NCBI GenBank assembly: GCA_963663385.2
Contig: CAXXXD010000002.1
Span: 1,472,001-1,536,000, forward strand
Direction of reading: 5' to 3'
Length of the DNA: 64,000 nt
Source of the DNA: Oceanispirochaeta sp.
GTDB taxonomy: Bacteria; Spirochaetota; Spirochaetia; DSM-2461
Part shown: positions 18,649 through 34,396 of the stretch, one piece after another
Position numbering within the stretch: position 1 is the stretch's first letter
Layout: each line of letters starts with the position of its first letter
Notes under the pieces: generated by a model
What the model was told of the DNA's origin: nothing
Database searches by the model: none
Seen by the model: the letters and a program-made list of their open reading frames with translations, nothing else
Position numbers and translations under genes: made by a program

Positions 18649-18721
18649 GGGCCGCTAGCTCAGCTGGCAGAGCAACGCCCTTTTAAGGCGTGGGTCACTG
18701 GTTCGAACCCAGTGCGGCTCA
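18649..18721 (+). tRNA. tRNA-Lys(UUU), copy 1
   Basis: Cloverleaf; anticodon arm ACGCC-CTTTTAA-GGCGT; GGTTCGAACC T-loop. Confidence 0.97.
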
Positions 18722-18744
18722 AAGGCTAACCGAACGAACAAAAT

Positions 18745-18816
18745 GTCTCCATCGTCTAGGGGTTAGGACACCGGGTTTTCATCCCGGCAACGGGGGTTCG
18801 ATTCCCCCTGGAGATG
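18745..18816 (+). tRNA. tRNA-Glu(UUC), copy 1
   Basis: Anticodon arm CCGGG-TTTTCAT-CCCGG; GGTTCGATTCC. Confidence 0.97.
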
Positions 18817-18819
18817 AAC

Positions 18820-18892
18820 GGGCCGCTAGCTCAGCTGGCAGAGCAACGCCCTTTTAAGGCGTGGGTCACTGGTTCGAACCCAGTGCGGCTCA
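18820..18892 (+). tRNA. tRNA-Lys(UUU), copy 2
   Basis: Identical to 18649-18721. Confidence 0.97.
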
Positions 18893-18917
18893 TCCGTTTT
18901 TGTTCGGTTAGTTTTAT

Positions 18918-18989
18918 GTCTCCATCGTCTAGGGGTTAGGACACCGGGTTTTCATCCCGGCAACGGGGGTTCGATTCCCCCTGGAGATG
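18918..18989 (+). tRNA. tRNA-Glu(UUC), copy 2
   Basis: Identical to 18745-18816. Confidence 0.97.
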
Positions 18990-22601: not shown

Positions 22602-24143
<1,542 letters not shown>

Positions 24144-24340
24144 AGCGTGAAAGGTATAAGTCTTGAGGTTTGTACGCCTTGAGCAGTGAGTCACTATTTA
24201 TAGTGCCTATCAGTAGTTACGTTCCTCGGTCTTTGACCTGTGGTACGTAACTTGCTTGATTCTCGTCAACTACTTCTAATTTCCCGTCAGATAATTCCTT
24301 AAAGGGCTTTAGGCGATTTGAGTTTAAGGCCAAACAATTA

Positions 24341-24414
<74 letters not shown>

Positions 24415-24548
24415 TAAAATTAAGTTTGTATCTTGAACAGGATCAAACTTTTTTTACGCCGAATTGCTTGCAGTGAGGCGGGAGATGCGGGAGGCTTTAC
24501 TCTTGCGGATCTTTGAAAAGGTAATAGCGAAGGGATAAATAATAATAT

Positions 24549-27473
<2,925 letters not shown>

Positions 27474-27583
27474 TATTATTATTTATCTCTTCAGTTTTAT
27501 ATAAATTGCAATCGCTTTGGAAGCTAGGAATACTTCTGGAGAGTGAATGCTTCTTGTCAGGGTAAGACTTGATAAGATTATTA

Positions 27584-27692
<109 letters not shown>

Positions 27693-27762: not shown

Positions 27763-29394
27763 TTATAACTCTGAAAAGCAGTCCCCCTGACAGAATCCTT
27801 CCTCATGAAGGGGGCAGTTCCTGCAGATATCAAATACCGGTCTCTGAATAAGGTTATTTAGCGTAGAGTAATAGTTTCCCGGTAAATTGTCCGCCCCTGA
27901 ATATTCCTTGAATCGGTATGTATCTTTTGTTAATGCTTCGCAGGGACTGTAAGTCCCATCGGGATTAAGATTAAAATGAGAAGTAAAATCGTTCCTGTCC
28001 AGATTGCAGATATTGTTTAGATGAGTGTTCCGGAGCAGGTACTTTGATGATTCATTGTCAAAGAGGCAAAGCGGTATAGGGTTTGATATGATGATTTTAT
28101 GTCTTCTGAATTCATATCTGCTTTTTAAATGTTTAACAATAGAGAGAAGATAATCCGCATAGGTTTTAATGGTTTGTTCCGACTTAACTTTATTACAGCG
28201 GGATAATGAGGCTGACAGGCTGATAACCGGATATTGAACTATATCAATATACTTGTTAAGGAAATCCCAGCTCTCATTTTCAGTAAAAGAAACATCATAT
28301 CGCAGAACAATCTGTTTAGAGCAGGTTGTTGCTTTCAGGATATTCTGTGTTATCTGGCGGATCTGCTGTTCTGATTTCAGATTTCTATCTTCAAATAGCT
28401 GAATCACAATTTTTTTCAGATCTTCGAATCTGATAATCTGTGACCAGATATTTTCATGAAATTGCGCCGTTGATGTTATGGTTGTCTGTAGATTGAATCG
28501 TGCTGTTTCAGACAGATAATTCAGGCAGTGGGGTAAAAGGTTTTCCAGACCAGACAGGTTCAGGGTTTTCTTTTCTTTTTCTGATGCGGTAATATTTAAA
28601 ATATCTTCAAACTTTTCCCAATTTATCTGCAGATCCGGAGCTGACGTGTCTTTTTTCCGGTTGGTGCAGTGAAAGCAGCTCATCGGGCCTGAATCCCGTA
28701 AATTAATGGAAACCTGGGTTGAAACCGATTCAAAGATCTTCTCCCGTTCTGCCCTGAATGTTTCATATAGTTTGAATTTCCCTTCTTTGAAAACTATTGT
28801 GCTGTCCAGATTTTCAATTCCCGGAAAATATGCCAGAGACAGGTAATGCTGCAAAAAAAGTTCATCCGGAATGCTGGAGAGAAGGTTTGAAAGATTTCTG
28901 AGTCTAAGTTCTGACAAGAGATGCAGAAAGAGGCTGTTATTAAAATGCCGTATATCAGGGTGAAAATCCTTTTTTTCAACCAACTTCCTTTTCCTGAATG
29001 AGAAGGCGGGATCCATCATAAGGAGATCAAATGCTTTATCTCTGATTGATGGATCATGGTAGAAGAGGAGAGGCAGTATATTTTCGGTTTGATTAAAATC
29101 AAAGTTGTTTTTCTGAAGATCCAGTAAACCTTTGAGGATAAAATCATTTGAAGACTGATTACCTCTGCTTAATTCAGGATTGACTTTATGGCCGGACTCT
29201 CCTGCAGTTGACTCATTCTCCACTTCCTGTTCCATTTGATTAATATTGAATTCTTTACCGATGGATCTGATCTGATACCATATTTTTTTTATTTTACCCA
29301 TATAAAAACCCAGCTTTCTTAAATGGGCAACAGAGTTTTTAGGGTCCAGAAGAAGAATTATAAAAAGAATCAGTATAATCTCAATTAATACCAT
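27763..29394 (-). CDS. TatB-like membrane anchor fused to a HEAT-like segment and a degenerate radical SAM/SPASM domain
   Basis: N-term EIILILFIILLLDPKNSVAHLRKLGFYMGKIKKIW (TM, Pro hinge, amphipathic helix); GPMSCFHC in place of CxxxCxxC; C-term PIPLC...NPDGTYSPC...CRNC-x7-CQGDC. Confidence 0.65.
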   Translation of the reverse strand: MVLIEIILILFIILLLDPKNSVAHLRKLGFYMGKIKKIWYQIRSIGKEFNINQMEQEVENESTAGESGHKVNPELSRGNQSSNDFILKGLLDLQKNNFDFNQTENILPLLFYHDPSIRDKAFDLLMMDPAFSFRKRKLVEKKDFHPDIRHFNNSLFLHLLSELRLRNLSNLLSSIPDELFLQHYLSLAYFPGIENLDSTIVFKEGKFKLYETFRAEREKIFESVSTQVSINLRDSGPMSCFHCTNRKKDTSAPDLQINWEKFEDILNITASEKEKKTLNLSGLENLLPHCLNYLSETARFNLQTTITSTAQFHENIWSQIIRFEDLKKIVIQLFEDRNLKSEQQIRQITQNILKATTCSKQIVLRYDVSFTENESWDFLNKYIDIVQYPVISLSASLSRCNKVKSEQTIKTYADYLLSIVKHLKSRYEFRRHKIIISNPIPLCLFDNESSKYLLRNTHLNNICNLDRNDFTSHFNLNPDGTYSPCEALTKDTYRFKEYSGADNLPGNYYSTLNNLIQRPVFDICRNCPLHEEGFCQGDCFSEL

Positions 29395-29395
29395 A

Positions 29396-30091
29396 TCAGC
29401 CCCATTTCAGGAGTTTTGCAGCAGCAAGACAGAGGAGATACAGGATGAACAGGGGGATCGCTACAATAAACTGGGATAGTAGGTCCTGAGTCATGACAGC
29501 CGAAATCAACAGGGCTACGGGAATAAAATAGGGAATGAATTTAATAAGTCTGGCTCTTTTCAGAATTCGGAATCTGAGCAGTATCAGGGTAATTACCGGA
29601 AACTGGAGCGCTACACAGAAGGCCAGGGTGAATTTGAAATAGAAGCTGATGAATTCATTATAGGAAAAAATCTTGGTCAGACTATCCGGAATAAATGCTT
29701 TAGATTCCAGAAAATAGATTGTTATGGGGAGAAAAATTCTTACAGCGTAAATGGCTGTACAGTAGAGAATTAGACTTAACAGAAAAAGAGTTGAAAAAGT
29801 TGTTTTCTCTTTTTTTTCCAGAGCCGGGAGGATAAAAAGAAGAATATTAAACAGGAAAACAGGAAGAGACAATAGCAGTCCTATATACAGTGAAACCTGG
29901 ATCCTGATAGTGAAGCCTTCATAGACTTTCATTACATGAAAATCTATTTGAAAGGTGCTGTTCAGATATCCTATAAAACGAGGGAAAAGAATGTAGGCGC
30001 TTATTGAAAAAATTATGAAAAAAACTAACGCAATTATCAGTTTCGTCCGTAACTCAATGAGGTGTTGTGTAAATGTGAGGTTTTTTTCCAT
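29396..30091 (-). CDS. tatC: Twin-arginine translocase subunit TatC
   Basis: TFTQHLIELRTKL, YEGF, FILPALEKKEK, QFPV; about six hydrophobic segments. Confidence 0.9.
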   Translation of the reverse strand: MEKNLTFTQHLIELRTKLIIALVFFIIFSISAYILFPRFIGYLNSTFQIDFHVMKVYEGFTIRIQVSLYIGLLLSLPVFLFNILLFILPALEKKEKTTFSTLFLLSLILYCTAIYAVRIFLPITIYFLESKAFIPDSLTKIFSYNEFISFYFKFTLAFCVALQFPVITLILLRFRILKRARLIKFIPYFIPVALLISAVMTQDLLSQFIVAIPLFILYLLCLAAAKLLKWG

Positions 30092-30298
30092 TTAATGGTT
30101 ATTGGAATCGGAATCGGATGGGTCATCATCCGGTTTTGAAGATTTCTCTTCACTCTCTTCTTTCATTCCGCTTTTAAGACCTTTCTTGAATTCTACCAGC
30201 CCTTCACCGATTGAGCGGCCCAGTTTCGGCAGCTTGGATGAACCGAAAATGAGTAATATGGCACCGCCAACTACAAGTATTTCTACAAGACTGATCAT
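30092..30298 (-). CDS. tatA: Twin-arginine translocase subunit TatA
   Basis: EILVV...LLIFGSSKLPKLGRSIGEGLVEFKKG; RBS GAGG. Confidence 0.93.
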   Translation of the reverse strand: MISLVEILVVGGAILLIFGSSKLPKLGRSIGEGLVEFKKGLKSGMKEESEEKSSKPDDDPSDSDSNNH

Positions 30299-30331
30299 GA
30301 GATACCTCTTTTATTAAAGCAAAGTTATTAC

Positions 30332-30595
30332 CTATTTAGTCTGTCCGTAATAGTAGTAATAATAGTAATAATAATTATAGTAGTCGGAATAGTAGTAGTA
30401 ATTGTAATAATTAGAGTAGTAATAGTAGTAATTGTAATAGTTAGAGTAATTGTAATAATCAGAGTAAGTAAAAAGATCACAGCTGCTGACGACTACTGCT
30501 GTTCCGATACCAAGACCGATTTTTCCAATTCTTTCCAGAGCCTGTCTACGGGAGATAGTCGGTTTTTCTTTGCTTTCACCAGTATCAGTTCCCAT
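30332..30595 (-). CDS. 87-aa Tyr-rich precursor with Tat signal and lipobox (putative rSAM substrate)
   Basis: GGAG RBS before ATG 30595; SRRQAL; hydrophobic stretch IGLGIGTAVVV; VSS-C39; core YSDYYNYSNYYNYYYYYSNYYNYYYYSDYYNYYYYYYYYY then GQTK. Confidence 0.85.
   Translation of the reverse strand: MGTDTGESKEKPTISRRQALERIGKIGLGIGTAVVVSSCDLFTYSDYYNYSNYYNYYYYYSNYYNYYYYSDYYNYYYYYYYYYGQTK
30347..30466 (-). repeat. Coding low-complexity repeat: four YS[D/N]YYN units plus poly-Tyr runs
   Basis: 28 of 40 codons are Tyr with TAT and TAC interleaved; the only other residues are Ser, Asn and Asp. Confidence 0.9.
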
Positions 30596-30618
30596 TTTCT
30601 TCTCCAAAAAATGTTCTC

Positions 30619-30634
30619 TTATACTTAAGTATAA
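30619..30634. promoter_or_regulatory. Perfect 16-bp palindrome upstream of the precursor gene
   Basis: TTATACTTAAGTATAA is its own reverse complement. Confidence 0.45.
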
Positions 30635-30653
30635 ATTCAATAATATCATATAT

Positions 30654-31760
30654 CTACTCATTCGGAAACATTTCTATTCGATTCCCGGTTAAAGGCTCGA
30701 TATACTGTGTCATCAGTCTTTGCACTATTTCACAGGCTTCTCCCCGTTTCATAATATCCCCCTTCAAAGCCAGTGTATCGATAGGGCATCCTCCATGACA
30801 CATCCCCCAGAAACGGCAGTATTTGCAGTCAGTCTGTTTCAGAACAATTTGCCGTTTATTTATGATATCTCTTTTACTGTGTTCCAAGGCCGCTCTGATA
30901 CCGGTATTCCGGATATTTCCATAATCTGCCAGGTTTTCATCTCCTGCTTTTCCGCATTGGGAAAGCTTTCCCGTTGGACCTATGTAGAGCCAGTGGTTGG
31001 CGCAATTACCGGCATAATCACATAGAAGTCCACCTTTGCCATTTATAAACCTGATAAACATATCAATTGGACGAAGACCTTCATACTTTTCCGGATTTGC
31101 CAGGTAGATCGGCACCAGCTTTCCAAGGAAGTCGGCATACTCTTCGGGCGTAATATTTATATTGAAGGGATCATCCCCGTAAATGTAAATTTTATTAAAG
31201 GCTGGAGTTGTCTTAGTGTTTATATTTTTCAGGTGGTTAAGTATTCCTACCGGATTTTCAAGGGATCTTCTATGAACGACATATATAACCCCCCAGCTCA
31301 GGTTGTTCCGTTCAGCCAGTTCCGTTCCCTTGAAAAAAAGCTCCTTATAGATCTTTGAATCCCTTTTTTCTCCTATTCCCCGAATACCTTCTATGGGGTC
31401 GTAACTTGAACCTATCATATCAATCTTCAACTCTTTAAATACATCAACTAATTCCTGTGTCAAGCAAGTCATATTTGATTGGATCAGATGCCGGATTCTG
31501 TTTTCAGTCTCTCTGCAATAGGTTCTCTGGTATTCCAGTGCCTTTCTGAAATAGTCAGGACCAAGAAGGCAGGGTTCTCCTCCATGCCAGGTCAGCTGTA
31601 TGGATTCATCCGGGAATTCCTTTAAATAGTCATTCATACGTTTAAACACTGTTTCCAGTATTTCGAAAGTCATTATTTTTTCCTGATGCTTTTTTATAAC
31701 ACCGCAGTAAAGACAGTTGGAATTGCAGAGTTCAATGGGTTTGAAAATTATAACTGCCAT
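30654..31760 (-). CDS. Radical SAM/SPASM enzyme, anSME-like (putative peptide maturase)
   Basis: KPIELCNSNCLYC; TWHGGEP; SPASM Cx5C-x15-C...GNI...CKYC-x5-CHGGCP...C. Confidence 0.9.
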   Translation of the reverse strand: MAVIIFKPIELCNSNCLYCGVIKKHQEKIMTFEILETVFKRMNDYLKEFPDESIQLTWHGGEPCLLGPDYFRKALEYQRTYCRETENRIRHLIQSNMTCLTQELVDVFKELKIDMIGSSYDPIEGIRGIGEKRDSKIYKELFFKGTELAERNNLSWGVIYVVHRRSLENPVGILNHLKNINTKTTPAFNKIYIYGDDPFNINITPEEYADFLGKLVPIYLANPEKYEGLRPIDMFIRFINGKGGLLCDYAGNCANHWLYIGPTGKLSQCGKAGDENLADYGNIRNTGIRAALEHSKRDIINKRQIVLKQTDCKYCRFWGMCHGGCPIDTLALKGDIMKRGEACEIVQRLMTQYIEPLTGNRIEMFPNE

Positions 31761-32629
31761 TTTTCGCCTTCCCGGCGGGGCTCCCGCTTCGTTGCTGAAT
31801 CTATATATTTGAGAATGCTGTCAAACAGGATTTTATAGGAATCATCTTTTTCACACTGGTTCAGGTAAGCCATCCGGCAGCTTCTCCAGGCCGAGCAGAA
31901 AGAACACTTTTCATTATCTATAAATACTCTGGTGCGAATTTCCCGGATTTTTCTGTTTTCACAATCATTGATAATCTCTTTCAGCTGTTCCAATCCGGAA
32001 CCCAGGAAATTTCCCTTTACCAGTTCATCCCTGCTTTCTGCTATATTCATACTCCTGTCTATATAGACAAATTGGGCCGGATCATTGAATACGGGGGCAG
32101 TTATCGAGAACGTTTCATTTTCATAATCCTTTGAGCAGAGAAAACGGAACGGCTCTATGTGGCCTTTTGGTACATTCGTGTAAGCAAAGTAGTGAAAAAG
32201 GTCGTCCAGGCTGTCCCAGTCGATATTATCACCACAACTTTTAAGATAGAAGCCGCAATCAATGTGCAGAGATGACAGAATCCTTAGATCTCGGATATTT
32301 TCCGCTTTATCTGCCGGGAAAAATACCTGCATATTAAAATTCCTCAACCTGCCTGTTTGTATAAGAATCATTGTCAGATCTCCTGTTTCCGGTACAAAGA
32401 GGGCAAGGGGAATCCCTTTGTAGGTATCTTTGAGTTCAAGTTCAGATAGACTTATATGAGAAGTTACTTTTATACAGAACAGACGGAAAAACTCTTTTGA
32501 AAGCTTGTCGATTTCTGTAACATCTTCCAGATTTTCGGTTTCTATAATACTTTCAATATCTTTCAGCTGACTTATCAAGTCCCTGTTGAAGGGTGCTACT
32601 ACGATTTTTTTTCTGTTTTTCTCTTTCAT
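31748..32629 (-). CDS. Degenerate SPASM-like protein with no CxxxCxxC motif
   Basis: C-term VYIDRSMNI...GNFLG...CSFCSAWRSC resembles the neighbour's LYIGPTGKL...YGNI...CKYCRFWGMC. Confidence 0.55.
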   Translation of the reverse strand: MKEKNRKKIVVAPFNRDLISQLKDIESIIETENLEDVTEIDKLSKEFFRLFCIKVTSHISLSELELKDTYKGIPLALFVPETGDLTMILIQTGRLRNFNMQVFFPADKAENIRDLRILSSLHIDCGFYLKSCGDNIDWDSLDDLFHYFAYTNVPKGHIEPFRFLCSKDYENETFSITAPVFNDPAQFVYIDRSMNIAESRDELVKGNFLGSGLEQLKEIINDCENRKIREIRTRVFIDNEKCSFCSAWRSCRMAYLNQCEKDDSYKILFDSILKYIDSATKREPRREGEKWQL

Positions 32630-33621
32630 ATCAGATCCTCCGCAGGAAGGTACTCTTCAATGAAATTTGCCAGGCATCCTCCGGCACATTTTTCGTTTTT
32701 CATATAAATGCAGGATTCACACTCATCGTATATTCCCGCTTTATTCCTGCGGACGGCTTTGTGCATATCGTTGTAGTACTTGTATATATCTTCCACCGAA
32801 TCAAATTCAAAAATACTCCTTCTTTTGAATCTTGACAGTGGAAAGCAGGACCAGACCGTCATATCAGGGCCTATATCCAGAGCCGAGCTGCATACAAATT
32901 TTACAGTAGACGGTCCCTGTCCTTTTTCCAGTTTAAAAAACTGACCGATCTGCTCGTCTGTAAAACTGCATAAGGGAAAGCCGCAGTCAAATCCGGCGCT
33001 TACATTGTGTTTTATAAAGAGAGGCAGATAGGATGACAGTTTCGCAGCCATTTCCTTGAAGTGATCAGGTTTGATACACAGATTCTTTTCCCCTGGTATG
33101 GGGTGGGCCAGGCCTATCCGTATATGTCTGTTTATACCGTATCGTTCAATGTGTTCGAAAAGGTATTCCATGGTGGCTTCCAGGGTGAAAAGATTGAAGC
33201 TGAGGGTGCAGTATTTTCCCAGTACCCGCAGAAAAGCATCAATCCTCTCCAGTTCCTTATCCGTGGACATGGACGGGTGGTTCAGGTTTACTACAAAGCG
33301 GACCCGATGTTCCGGAAACTGTTCCAGGCTGGCAACCAGATGATCCAGCTTCTTTTGAGACATAATTCCGCAGGTGAAAACGGTAACCCCGAAATTCCTG
33401 TTTATCAGATAGAGAATAAACTCGGTAAAATATTTATGAACGGAAGGTTCTCCTCCCAGAAGGGACAACTGGTTGTTCATATGGGACCGTTCGAAAAGAT
33501 CTACAATGTAGATGAAATCTTCCCAGCTTATAAACTTGTGATCTGAGCTGTCCATATATTTTTTAGCAAAGCAGTAGGGGCAGGATCTGACACACTCTTC
33601 GGTAAGCAATATATTTGGCAT
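32626..33621 (-). CDS. Radical SAM protein with SPASM/twitch-type C-terminus
   Basis: LTEECVRSCPYC; LLGGEP; DCGFPLC; VCSSALDIGPDMTVWSC; CESC-x7-CAGGC. Confidence 0.9.
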   Translation of the reverse strand: MPNILLTEECVRSCPYCFAKKYMDSSDHKFISWEDFIYIVDLFERSHMNNQLSLLGGEPSVHKYFTEFILYLINRNFGVTVFTCGIMSQKKLDHLVASLEQFPEHRVRFVVNLNHPSMSTDKELERIDAFLRVLGKYCTLSFNLFTLEATMEYLFEHIERYGINRHIRIGLAHPIPGEKNLCIKPDHFKEMAAKLSSYLPLFIKHNVSAGFDCGFPLCSFTDEQIGQFFKLEKGQGPSTVKFVCSSALDIGPDMTVWSCFPLSRFKRRSIFEFDSVEDIYKYYNDMHKAVRRNKAGIYDECESCIYMKNEKCAGGCLANFIEEYLPAEDLI

Positions 33622-33682: not shown

Positions 33683-33748
33683 ATTAATACAAAAATGTTT
33701 ATTATTCATCTCTTGTAAATTATGTGTCAGTCTGTAAAATCTATAGTA

Positions 33749-34396
33749 ATGAAATCCCCTCCTTCGAAAATAGTCCTTTTAACTCCTCTTATCCCTGAAT
33801 TTCACGCAGCCAGGGAAGCTTTTGGAGCCAGGGAATTGGAAAACGGGAGTTACCCGGGAGTCCGGATGGCTGAATGGCGCAGAAAAGGACTGATCCTTAC
33901 GATTGTGCAATGCGGATTGGGAGATAAGGGCGTAAAGAGCGTTCTGCCACTGTTATCGGAACTTCATCCTGATCTTCTGATCGATTCCGGCAGCTGCGGA
34001 GGCCTGAATCCTGCTTTCCCTCCGGGCTCCCTTGTAATGGCCGGAGAGGTTGTTTCCTCTGAAAGCCGTACGGTCCTGTCCATGGATTTTTCCGGTTTTG
34101 AGGGTTCCTTTTCTGATTCCGGTTATTTAAAAACCAGGATGCTGGAAGTTCCTGATCCGGTTCTGGATCAGAAAAGCAGGGATGAATTTCAAAGCAGTAC
34201 CGGAGCCGGTGTATGCTCCATGGAAACCTATGCCGTTGCCGAATGGGCGAGGGATAACGCCGTTAAGTGTTTCAGTCTCAGGGTTGTCACCGACCGGGCT
34301 GATGAGAATACCGGGAAGGATTTCAGGAGGAACCTGCGTAATAATACGCTGCTCCTTTATCGTGCGATAAAACAAATACTGAGTTCTCTCCGGTAA
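33749..34396 (+). CDS. Nucleoside phosphorylase / MTA-SAH nucleosidase superfamily protein
   Basis: CGLG, DSGSCGGL, CSMETYAVA, LRVVTDRAD; start may instead be 33722. Confidence 0.75.
   Translation: MKSPPSKIVLLTPLIPEFHAAREAFGARELENGSYPGVRMAEWRRKGLILTIVQCGLGDKGVKSVLPLLSELHPDLLIDSGSCGGLNPAFPPGSLVMAGEVVSSESRTVLSMDFSGFEGSFSDSGYLKTRMLEVPDPVLDQKSRDEFQSSTGAGVCSMETYAVAEWARDNAVKCFSLRVVTDRADENTGKDFRRNLRNNTLLLYRAIKQILSSLR

Follow-up and report, generated by a model that had tools for sequence, protein, structure and literature searches.

A tyrosine-rich precursor-like gene between radical SAM and Tat genes of Oceanispirochaeta sp., with a predicted route of cross-linking, export and lipidation

What may be the role of a gene that encodes a signal peptide followed by a row of tyrosines and that is embedded between genes for radical S-adenosylmethionine (SAM) proteins and genes for twin-arginine translocation (Tat)? 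An open reading frame (ORF) of this kind lies in a stretch of 64,000 nucleotides of Oceanispirochaeta sp. (contig CAXXXD010000002.1, positions 1,472,001 to 1,536,000), which we call the window. It belongs to a series of seven minus-strand genes that overlap or are separated by gaps of at most 58 nt, in the order rSAM2, p293, rSAM1, precursor, TatA, TatC and p543; p293 overlaps with rSAM2 by 4 nt and with rSAM1 by 13 nt. Judged by this gene content, the ORF is predicted to be the substrate gene of a radical SAM maturation and export cassette. We propose that the Tyr residues of its product are linked in the cytoplasm to the C-beta atoms of residues two positions downstream (i to i+2), and that the product is then exported by the Tat pathway and lipidated at Cys39. 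As a whole, this reading has in our opinion an even chance of being correct.

The translation of the precursor reads M..ISRRQALERIGKIGLGIGTAVVVSS-C39-DLFT, followed by the Tyr core and the tail GQTK. The core has the order YSDYYN YSNYYN YYYY YSNYYN YYY YSDYYN YYYYYYYYY and is composed of 28 Tyr, six Asn, four Ser and two Asp; His is absent from it. The precursor is the most Tyr-dense open frame of the 5.3-Mb genome, and chance is excluded as an explanation: six-frame translation of the whole genome disclosed seven open frames with at least eight Tyr per 20 residues, and the richest 20-residue segment contains 16 Tyr in the precursor frame but exactly eight in each of the other six. A GGAG sequence is located 6 nt 5′ of the ATG (at 30595). 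The 28 Tyr codons comprise 17 TAC and 11 TAT, which are interleaved, and TAC is in excess (binomial p=0.009) compared with its share of 37% in the long ORFs of the window. The core units 1-3 share the codon pattern TAC TCT xxx TAT TAC AAT, while unit 4 shows synonymous differences; therefore, an 18-bp duplication and selection at the protein level have both left traces in the core. Tandem Repeats Finder detected imperfect periods only (64-89% matches). Promoter and terminator scans did not exceed shuffled sequences (22 vs 16.1 +/- 4.0), and neither Pfam nor NCBIfam contains a family for the ORF. A spurious ORF or a slippage artefact was ruled out by the conservation across loci described below, together with the genome-wide uniqueness of the frame.

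In front of Cys39, the window precursor contains a twin-arginine-type motif, S-R-R-Q-A-L-E, followed by the hydrophobic region IGKIGLGIGTAVVV. The lipobox of lipoproteins has the pattern [LVI][ASTVI][GAS]C, to which V-S-S-C39 fits, and the genome possesses both lspA and lgt (LspA 1.7e-33, Lgt 1.9e-66). Across phyla, hardly any variation is seen in the leader RR[DE]A[LI]KR, which is far better kept than the cores; in 37 distinct precursors its positions were occupied by R (36), R (35), D/E (34), A (37), L/I (36), K (35), R (37) and I/M (31). Glu at the Lys position is found in the window leader alone (one other leader has Arg), and so is Gln at the Asp/Glu position (two others have Asn). With the exception of the exchange of Phe by Ala, the family leader agrees with the Tat consensus S/T-R-R-x-F-L-K, as given in the available part of a published description (PMC3383694). 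In 17 of the 37 precursors a Cys follows directly after the hydrophobic region (15 recognized by regular expression and two by eye); the others end with an Ala-x-Ala-like sequence. The sequence S-C-D or S-C-E is also found in the homologues of spirochaetes and in some of those of Bacteroidales. Other Tat substrates of the genome were sought by a crude RR-motif scan, which gave 31 matches, none of them convincing. This is weak evidence because the scan missed the precursor itself, owing to the Glu at the Lys position. A first-pass annotation made from the letters of the window had already parsed the core, counted 28 Tyr in 40 residues and placed every Asn and Asp two residues after a Tyr, giving eight triplets; the translation of the minus-strand ORF reproduced all this exactly. 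Likewise, the S-R-R-x-A-L motif and the V-S-S-C of its parse are in the translation, together with a hydrophobic region, and tatA and tatC lie immediately downstream. The range 30332 to 30595, which had been taken for the core, is right for the whole ORF including the stop codon; the core itself is the shorter segment given in Table 1. From the interleaving it had taken the codons to reflect selection rather than slippage; in the codons, traces of duplication and of selection are both visible.

The question whether this is a gene of one strain or of a family was answered by comparison of genomes. Among 40 relatives, an rSAM1 orthologue (57-62% identity) occurred in only three genomes, which belong to other genera and families, and the same-genus matches were paralogues (22-28% identity). 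All three orthologue loci contain the cassette with a Tyr-rich RR precursor; at one of them (L014), TatA was not found by BLAST. A locus scan with one genome per species yielded 40 loci with an rSAM1 of at least 38% identity, stemming from Spirochaetales, Bacteroidales, Ignavibacteria, Elusimicrobia, Deltaproteobacteria/Syntrophaceae, Thermodesulfobacteriota and Nitrospirae; the hosts live anaerobically in guts, sediments and bioreactors. All three members of the rSAM2-p293-rSAM1 trio were found at 37 of these 40 loci, and rSAM2 at 38. The exceptions are L021, which is cut by the end of its contig, L038, where BLAST did not detect p293, and L051. Counting the window, a Tyr-rich ORF with an RR leader was detected at 36 of 41 loci (35 recognized by script, and L034 by eye); the loci without it, five in number, are short or truncated contigs or L051.

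The cores of the family vary in length from 25 to ~150 residues. In the window core, Tyr occupies position -2 of Asn/Asp in 8/8 cases (shuffle mean 5.2, p=0.02), which is modestly unusual given the composition. Over the family, an aromatic residue at this position was more frequent than in shuffles in 28 of the 37 distinct precursors, with values (shuffle means in parentheses) such as 23/25 (7.6) in L044, 21/22 (6.2) in L049, 13/14 (4.2) in L042 and 21/22 (9.9) in L046. The corresponding rule for position +1 gave equal or lower values in most rows (21/25, 18/22, 11/14 and 19/22 for the same four precursors). The middle residue of the triplet is free (K, G, S, T, A, E, R, Y, I or L), and in one W-x-D triplet Trp takes the place of Tyr. 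Thus, the first-pass claim of a precursor beside radical SAM/SPASM enzymes was borne out by a real and conserved gene, and the homologues lacking the Y-x-[N/D] spacing, which it had named as a finding that would speak against it, did not turn up as the rule; p293, the TatB fusion and the breadth of the family had escaped it.

The loci differ in their surroundings. At most non-spirochaete loci a GT9 glycosyltransferase gene follows directly after rSAM1, in place of the Tat genes and p543 (eight stand-alone genes plus one rSAM1-GT9 fusion, L044). A tblastn search with five cassette GT9 proteins (E<=1e-3) detected GT9 neither in this genome nor at the loci of spirochaetes. The rSAM1-GT9 fusion (737 aa) was seen at L044:5854-8067 and L049:5660-8323; in L049 the open frame runs on into DUF4140/DUF4139 (887 aa), which may result from read-through or represent a genuine fusion. 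An additional rSAM1 paralogue (33-42% identity) lies at L019:7124-8197 and L054:7405-8517, where the cores are of the period-4 type Y-S-S-x. Each of two Bacteroidales loci (L038, L042) has a tandem pair of precursors and, behind it, a TatA and a TatC of its own, with no TatB-radical SAM fusion.

Which reaction the cassette might perform was judged from its enzymes. The rSAM1 protein has the cluster motif CNSNCLYC at residues 12-19, the complete Cys set of the auxiliary clusters and no N-terminal RiPP recognition element (RRE; RiPP, a peptide that is ribosomally synthesized and modified post-translationally). In comparisons with NCBIfam models it achieved the following bit scores (score/cut-off): TIGR04083 129.9/300, DynA (NF041298) 121.9/450, anSME (TIGR03942) 121.1/349.45, DarE (NF038005) 113.8/650, AmcB (NF041718) 81.3/425, GrrM/OscB (TIGR04261) 80.0/310, YhhB (NF041707) 71.8/445 and FxsB (TIGR04269) 38.2/370. 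Its orthologue in L025 gave 50.6/450 for XyeB (TIGR04496), 139.6 for DynA and 137.3 for DarE. Only the SPASM domain passes (40.9/27), and the anSME, DarE and DynA models score rSAM1 above the triceptide maturase models. A search of the PDB sequences with the rSAM1 profile retrieved anSME (3.6e-24) as the sole full-length match among solved structures. The available text of a paper on the CrpC thioether enzyme, considered in connection with the TIGR04083 score, makes no mention of TIGR04083 and was set aside. By sequence, rSAM1 is predicted to belong with anSME, DarE, DynA and the triceptide maturases, enzymes that generally start by abstraction of a C-beta hydrogen. The second enzyme, rSAM2, has its cluster motif CVRSCPYC at residues 10-17 and did not reach any NCBIfam cut-off. 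Its AlphaFold2 (AF2) model, with a predicted local distance difference test (pLDDT) value of 85.0, was most similar to anSMEcpe (Z 19.2, 287 aligned residues, root-mean-square deviation (rmsd) 3.7), SuiB (18.9) and ChlB (18.5).

The gene between the two enzymes encodes a protein, p293, that has no Pfam or NCBIfam match (for HxsD, TIGR03976, none at E<=0.01). A search of the PDB sequences with p293 also gave nothing (E 0.22), and the radical SAM/SPASM fold was seen by fold search alone. The AF2 model (pLDDT 88.7, predicted template modelling score 0.88) resembled anSMEcpe (Z 13.4, 257 aligned residues, rmsd 3.7), CteB (12.3) and ChlB (12.2), and the p293 family has no CxxxCxxC motif. That p293 is a diverged rSAM2 paralogue recognizable by sequence was rejected by hhalign (0.6% probability). 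A search of 1.84 billion proteins yielded 427 representatives of the p293 family at E<=1e-3, and 269 when the limit was E<=1e-30; the neighbours of p293 in the ESM Atlas are clusters of the 'hypothetical protein' type. In a complex model of three chains (rSAM1, the precursor, and p293 as partner), p293 with rSAM1 obtained a score of 0.76, while the best of three controls obtained 0.00. Of 157 solved complexes, 116 attain this score, as do two of 215 mismatches, a calibration that is only rough here, since the three-chain model had its own alignments. The runs agreed on at least 91% of the contacts, with a partner pLDDT of at least 83. The confident contacts are all with rSAM1; they join its residues 122-183 and 222-225 with residues 169-171, 229-249 and 277 of p293 and take in the conserved C242/C245 region. 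The score pits p293 against the other chains and is not informative on precursor binding. The model supports a predicted p293-rSAM1 heterodimer, and p293 would be a clean example of a pseudoenzyme with a radical SAM fold for which binding to an active, paralogue-like enzyme is predicted.

How the product might leave the cytoplasm is suggested by the three last genes. In p543, a transmembrane and amphipathic helix (approximately residues 1-50) is separated by a linker from an rSAM2-like domain (residues 230-543). Six of seven N-termini of the p543 family match the tatB model TIGR01410 (best 3.8e-07), while the window protein matches only TatB_Rickett (7.2e-4, 19.7 bits vs a cut-off of 75). Pfam TatA_B_E detected none of the seven at E<=1. 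By hhalign, the N-terminus was related to the TatA family of the cassette (95.4%, E 1.7e-08) and the C-terminal domain to the rSAM2 family (99.7%, E 4.5e-26, 292 columns). In the window copy, the cluster motif is without its first Cys (GPMSCFHC), and GGE is lost too (SGLE). C-x3-C-x2-C and GGEPT are intact in five of six orthologues, the L017 copy being degenerate too, and Pfam Radical_SAM recognizes six of the seven family members, the window copy alone remaining unmatched. To judge from these sequences, the third radical SAM activity seems to be dispensable or decaying in some lineages.

TatC lies directly upstream of the p543 homologue in all seven genomes with readable context. It is the only TatC in four of them, this genome and the three relatives first examined, and the other three contain one or two further TatC genes elsewhere; therefore, a translocon of its own is retained in the cassette even in genomes that have a housekeeping one. 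The TatB-radical SAM fusion is rare, being present in eight of 401 sampled genomes of the class and in six of 155 genera. A word-index search of 5.8 billion proteins retrieved, for the p543-family alignment, the window protein itself and two weak matches, and for the N-terminal 230 residues of the L022 protein, this protein and one relative of 568 aa. No relative was found in a metagenome scan with the single L022 protein, whose NCBI name is 'radical SAM protein'. The available text of a 2026 Tat review (PMC13673990) describes lipoproteins as class II Tat substrates and chaperone-like C-terminal domains of TatB; the word 'radical' is absent from that text. Eight of ten same-genus genomes (G001-G008) have one or two TatC genes with 151-214 bits and no cassette. 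This genome has only the divergent TatC of the cassette (119.8 bits) and seems to be devoid of the Tat system usual in the genus.

Table 1. Positions of the cassette genes and of parts of the precursor in the window
Feature	Positions	Strand	Basis or remark
rSAM2, 331-aa radical SAM protein with Cys-rich SPASM-like C-terminus, first cassette gene	32626-33621	minus	Pfam Radical_SAM 9.8e-12, Fer4_12
p293, radical SAM/SPASM fold without CxxxCxxC, predicted rSAM1 partner	31748-32629	minus	AF2 fold; keeps C242, C245, C251
rSAM1, 368-aa anSME-like radical SAM/SPASM protein, candidate cross-linking enzyme	30654-31760	minus	Pfam Radical_SAM 3.3e-09
Precursor ORF	30332-30595	minus	87 aa + stop; homologues adjoin rSAM1 orthologues
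Signal/leader, residues 1-38	30482-30595	minus	S15-R16-R17-Q-A-L-E, hydrophobic IGKIGLGIGTAVVV, V-S-S before C39
Cys39, predicted lipidation/cleavage site (+1 Cys, then Asp)	30479-30481	minus	V-S-S-C lipobox
Core, residues 44-83	30347-30466	minus	28 Tyr in 40 residues, eight Y-x-[N/D] triplets
TatA-family subunit, 68 aa	30092-30298	minus	Pfam TatA_B_E 6.9e-15; only TatA_B_E match in genome (E<=0.01)
TatC, 231 aa	29396-30091	minus	Pfam TatC 1.8e-34; only TatC match in genome
p543, TatB-like N-terminus, helical linker and C-terminal rSAM2-like domain	27763-29394	minus	hhalign, hidden Markov models (HMMs)

Taken together, a pathway of four steps can be drawn. It would start from the 87-aa peptide with its twin-arginine-type signal, the lipobox Cys39 and the core of Tyr-x-[Asn/Asp] triplets and Tyr runs. 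In the cytoplasm rSAM1, in its predicted pair with p293, would abstract a C-beta hydrogen from the third residue of each Y-x-[N/D] triplet, and the radical so formed would couple to the ring of the Tyr two positions upstream. This is proposed because of the aromatic-x-[N/D/S] spacing found family-wide, the placement of rSAM1, and the definition of triceptides as peptides with an aromatic residue linked to C-beta on omega1-X2-X3, as far as the source is available (PMC11499958). Runs of Tyr-Tyr-Tyr might instead yield an ether or a beta-oxo residue; the accessible part of a DarE preprint reports ether formation and beta-oxo products from aromatic C-beta radicals. A second modification would be added by rSAM2. 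The rigid product may then be exported by the TatA and TatC of the cassette together with the TatB-like protein, which is fused to a third, intact radical SAM domain in relatives and to a degenerate one here. Finally, lipidation and cleavage at Cys39 by Lgt and LspA would yield a Tyr-rich lipopeptide of 48 residues, located on the outside of the cytoplasmic membrane or within the envelope. The export signal would at the same time act as RiPP leader, and therefore no dedicated protease or ABC exporter would be needed.

A bolder version, which we regard as doubtful and put forward tentatively, is that maturation is physically coupled to the private Tat translocon, whose TatB subunit bears a radical SAM domain. 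The poly-Tyr peptide would be held by its RR signal at TatBC, cross-linked at the membrane to give a rigid ladder of three-residue rings and passed only when finished, one signal combining the functions of leader, Tat address and site of lipidation. After export, the rod would represent a new type of polymer in the envelope, with a structural or protective role or with redox activity via stacked phenols, and would be glycosylated by GT9 in other phyla. For a fibre-type envelope product, the substrates of two loci may be invoked. At L020:8028-8804 and L034:8052-8807, Tyr/Ser-rich RR-signal proteins end in a Peptidase_S74 domain (2.2e-16 and 4.2e-16). This 'chaperone of endosialidase' domain causes fibrous proteins to trimerise before it removes itself by self-cleavage, and the fusions hint that the repeat region might be a fibre.

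Several observations weigh against the proposed cross-linking and Tat export. The window core alone is unable to separate Y-x-[N/D] from [N/D]-Y, because Tyr at position +1 is likewise found in 8/8 cases (p=0.03). In the family, the N/D rule is not shown by nine of the 37 precursors (e.g., L033 5/13, L020 6/11, L029 5/9, L041 12/19); cores of a Ser type (Y-S-S, Y-x-S) are among the nine, and the period is four in L019 and L054. Moreover, the precursors are related, so that the shuffle tests made for each of them are not independent. The rSAM1 protein stays far below every curated cut-off for triceptide, DarE, DynA and anSME families (for the triceptide families 38-87 vs 310-450 bits). The leader of the window precursor, RRQALERI, deviates at two conserved positions (Q for D/E and E for K). 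The Tat-signal HMM TIGR01409 had no match in the genome at E<=1, missing the precursor too, PF10518 had none above its cut-off (best 12.2 vs 22.7 bits), and TAT_signal of Pfam recognized none of 25 precursors at E<=1; as the curated models are only 21-29 positions long, these misses weigh little, though they speak against a textbook Tat signal. Judged by its sequence, the degenerate p543 domain along with the deviating leader, the window copy could be decaying. As the GT9 of most non-spirochaete loci is lacking here, the product of this cassette may also differ from theirs.

The alternative that survives best, and that we consider a possibility to be taken seriously even though it is rather unlikely, is that the same cassette performs another chemistry: C-beta oxidation as by anSME (to formylglycine or a beta-oxo residue), epimerisation, or Tyr-Tyr or Cys-acceptor links, with the period of three as a structural repeat. 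The full-length profile match of rSAM1 to anSME would suit it, as would the many Ser-rich cores (L019, L029, L048, L054) and the Cys residues found at the start and end of several cores. Furthermore, two active radical SAM enzymes here and three in relatives imply more than one reaction. However, a reading of the 87-aa translation revealed no C/S-x-P-x-R sulfatase motif, and the strict aromatic-x-[N/D] spacing, the free middle residue and the replacement of Tyr by Trp suit an i-to-i+2 ring, whereas oxidation or epimerisation do not predict them.

By analogy with HXS, the matured product might also be an envelope-resident effector of phage defence, which we think unlikely. In the available part of its description (PMC13128918), HXS comprises the radical SAM enzymes HxsB and HxsC, the partner HxsD, which forms a complex with HxsC, and HxsA with His-x-Ser repeats, matured in the cytoplasm and acting in the periplasm against the entry of phage DNA. 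The two systems have in common two radical SAM enzymes, a partner binding one of them (here by prediction) and an exported tripeptide-repeat substrate. There are weak matches of rSAM1 to HxsB (TIGR03978; 1.5e-16, 60.3/370) and of rSAM2 to HxsC (TIGR03977; 1.4e-4, 20.8/267.9), and the spread of the cassette is patchy and island-like, as seen from the rarity of p543 and from its GC content given below. Against this, the HXS cut-offs were not reached, no defence genes were noticed beside the cassette, and the core is acidic to neutral and rich in Tyr, not basic, so that the DNA-binding mechanism proposed for HxsA would not be transferable. The repeats are His-x-Ser there and Tyr-x-Asn/Asp/Ser here, the partner is HxsD there and a radical SAM-fold protein here, and a peptidoglycan-binding domain is missing here. 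Export of HxsA is described as non-canonical in the same part of the source, whereas Tat genes sit in this cassette. Membership in a known defence system was rejected: PADLOC (2023 library, which may not contain HXS) gave only weak matches of the viperin-type radical SAM core. Hardly credible, finally, is an unmodified low-complexity lipoprotein that merely neighbours the radical SAM genes or, in the extreme, an untranslated ORF, with which the lack of a Pfam or NCBIfam family and the imperfect tandem repeat of the DNA would agree, but not the co-occurrence with the trio across phyla, a leader kept over cores of such different lengths, the operon-like spacing, the TAC bias and the GGAG before the ATG.

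Returning to cross-linking followed by Tat export, the cassette functions in the manner of a triceptide or daropeptide pathway to which a substrate-dedicated Tat system has been added, with an architecture parallel to HXS, and is a member of none of them. With the triceptides (maturases XyeB, GrrM/OscB, FxsB, YhhB, AmcB, ChlB and HtkB) it shares repeated aromatic-X-X core motifs, with a third residue that is frequently polar and has a C-beta hydrogen, and an anSME-like SPASM enzyme lacking an RRE; the models of both rSAM2 and p293 have ChlB among their best structural matches. It differs from them in that rSAM1 falls short of all curated families and the cross-links are only predicted, in the twin-arginine/lipobox signal instead of a cytoplasmic leader, in the combination of two active radical SAM enzymes with a cluster-less, paralogue-like partner, in its own Tat genes (GT9 in other phyla), and in cores of up to ~150 residues with dozens of motifs.

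DarE and DynA, the enzymes of darobactin and dynobactin, also close rings from an aromatic residue to C-beta with i to i+2 spacing, and rSAM1-family proteins score as high against their models as against those of triceptides, or higher. Ether and C-C links are described for these enzymes in the accessible parts of PMC9055067 and PMC10705402, and ether formation at an aromatic C-beta residue could apply to the Tyr runs here. Their equivalog cut-offs (650 and 450) are far from being reached by rSAM1, and their products are Trp-containing antibiotics of 7-10 residues freed by proteolysis, not Tyr-repeat lipoproteins. The enzyme anSME, the top structural match of p293 and rSAM2, acts on a protein in the cytoplasm before export, as proposed here, but neither a sulfatase gene nor its target motif accompanies this cassette, and the TIGR03942 score is about a third of the cut-off. 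Substrate-dedicated Tat systems are known from the phoD-tatAd-tatCd operon of Bacillus subtilis. As in such systems and in Tat lipoproteins, tatA and tatC lie here beside an apparently single substrate, and an RR signal precedes a lipobox; the differences are the fusion of the TatB-like subunit to a radical SAM/SPASM domain and a short repeat peptide, not a cofactor enzyme, as substrate.

No description of a Tyr-rich radical SAM substrate with a Tat signal was found in the literature searched, which did not cover most subscription journals, the main papers on the triceptide landscape and their supplements included; the family may therefore already be listed in a sequence-similarity network. 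If the proposed pathway is true, it would represent a large Tyr-based branch of radical SAM peptide cross-linking with dozens of motifs per substrate, not one to three, and a RiPP-like pathway with a Tat/lipoprotein signal as leader, which would explain the absence of protease and ABC exporter genes. Enzymatically rigidified peptides would then be a new class of Tat substrates, and the TatB-radical SAM fusion would offer a handle on how a translocon knows that its substrate is finished. Candidate roles of the product are envelope structure, protection, defence or adhesion.

The GC content of the cassette (27763-33621) is 39.6% compared with 46.5% for the genome, which is the 4th percentile of windows of the same size, and the cassette was not found in the ten same-genus genomes searched. 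Both findings are consistent with a horizontal acquisition beside the rRNA operon, which is convergent (22602-27692) and ends just past p543. On the other side of the cassette a divergent gene (33722-34396, plus strand) encodes a PNP_UDP_1 protein similar to methylthioadenosine/S-adenosylhomocysteine (MTA/SAH) nucleosidases (Pfam 1.6e-16; HpnG-like 3.2e-15). Enzymes of this type can clear 5′-deoxyadenosine, a by-product of radical SAM reactions. By BLAST, such a gene was not found beside the cassettes of L013-L015. The window contains four tandem tRNA genes at 18649-18989, whose scores (64.3, 60.5, 64.3 and 60.5 bits) repeat pairwise and suggest a duplicated tRNA pair, and one more tRNA gene at 24341-24414 in the 16S-23S spacer.

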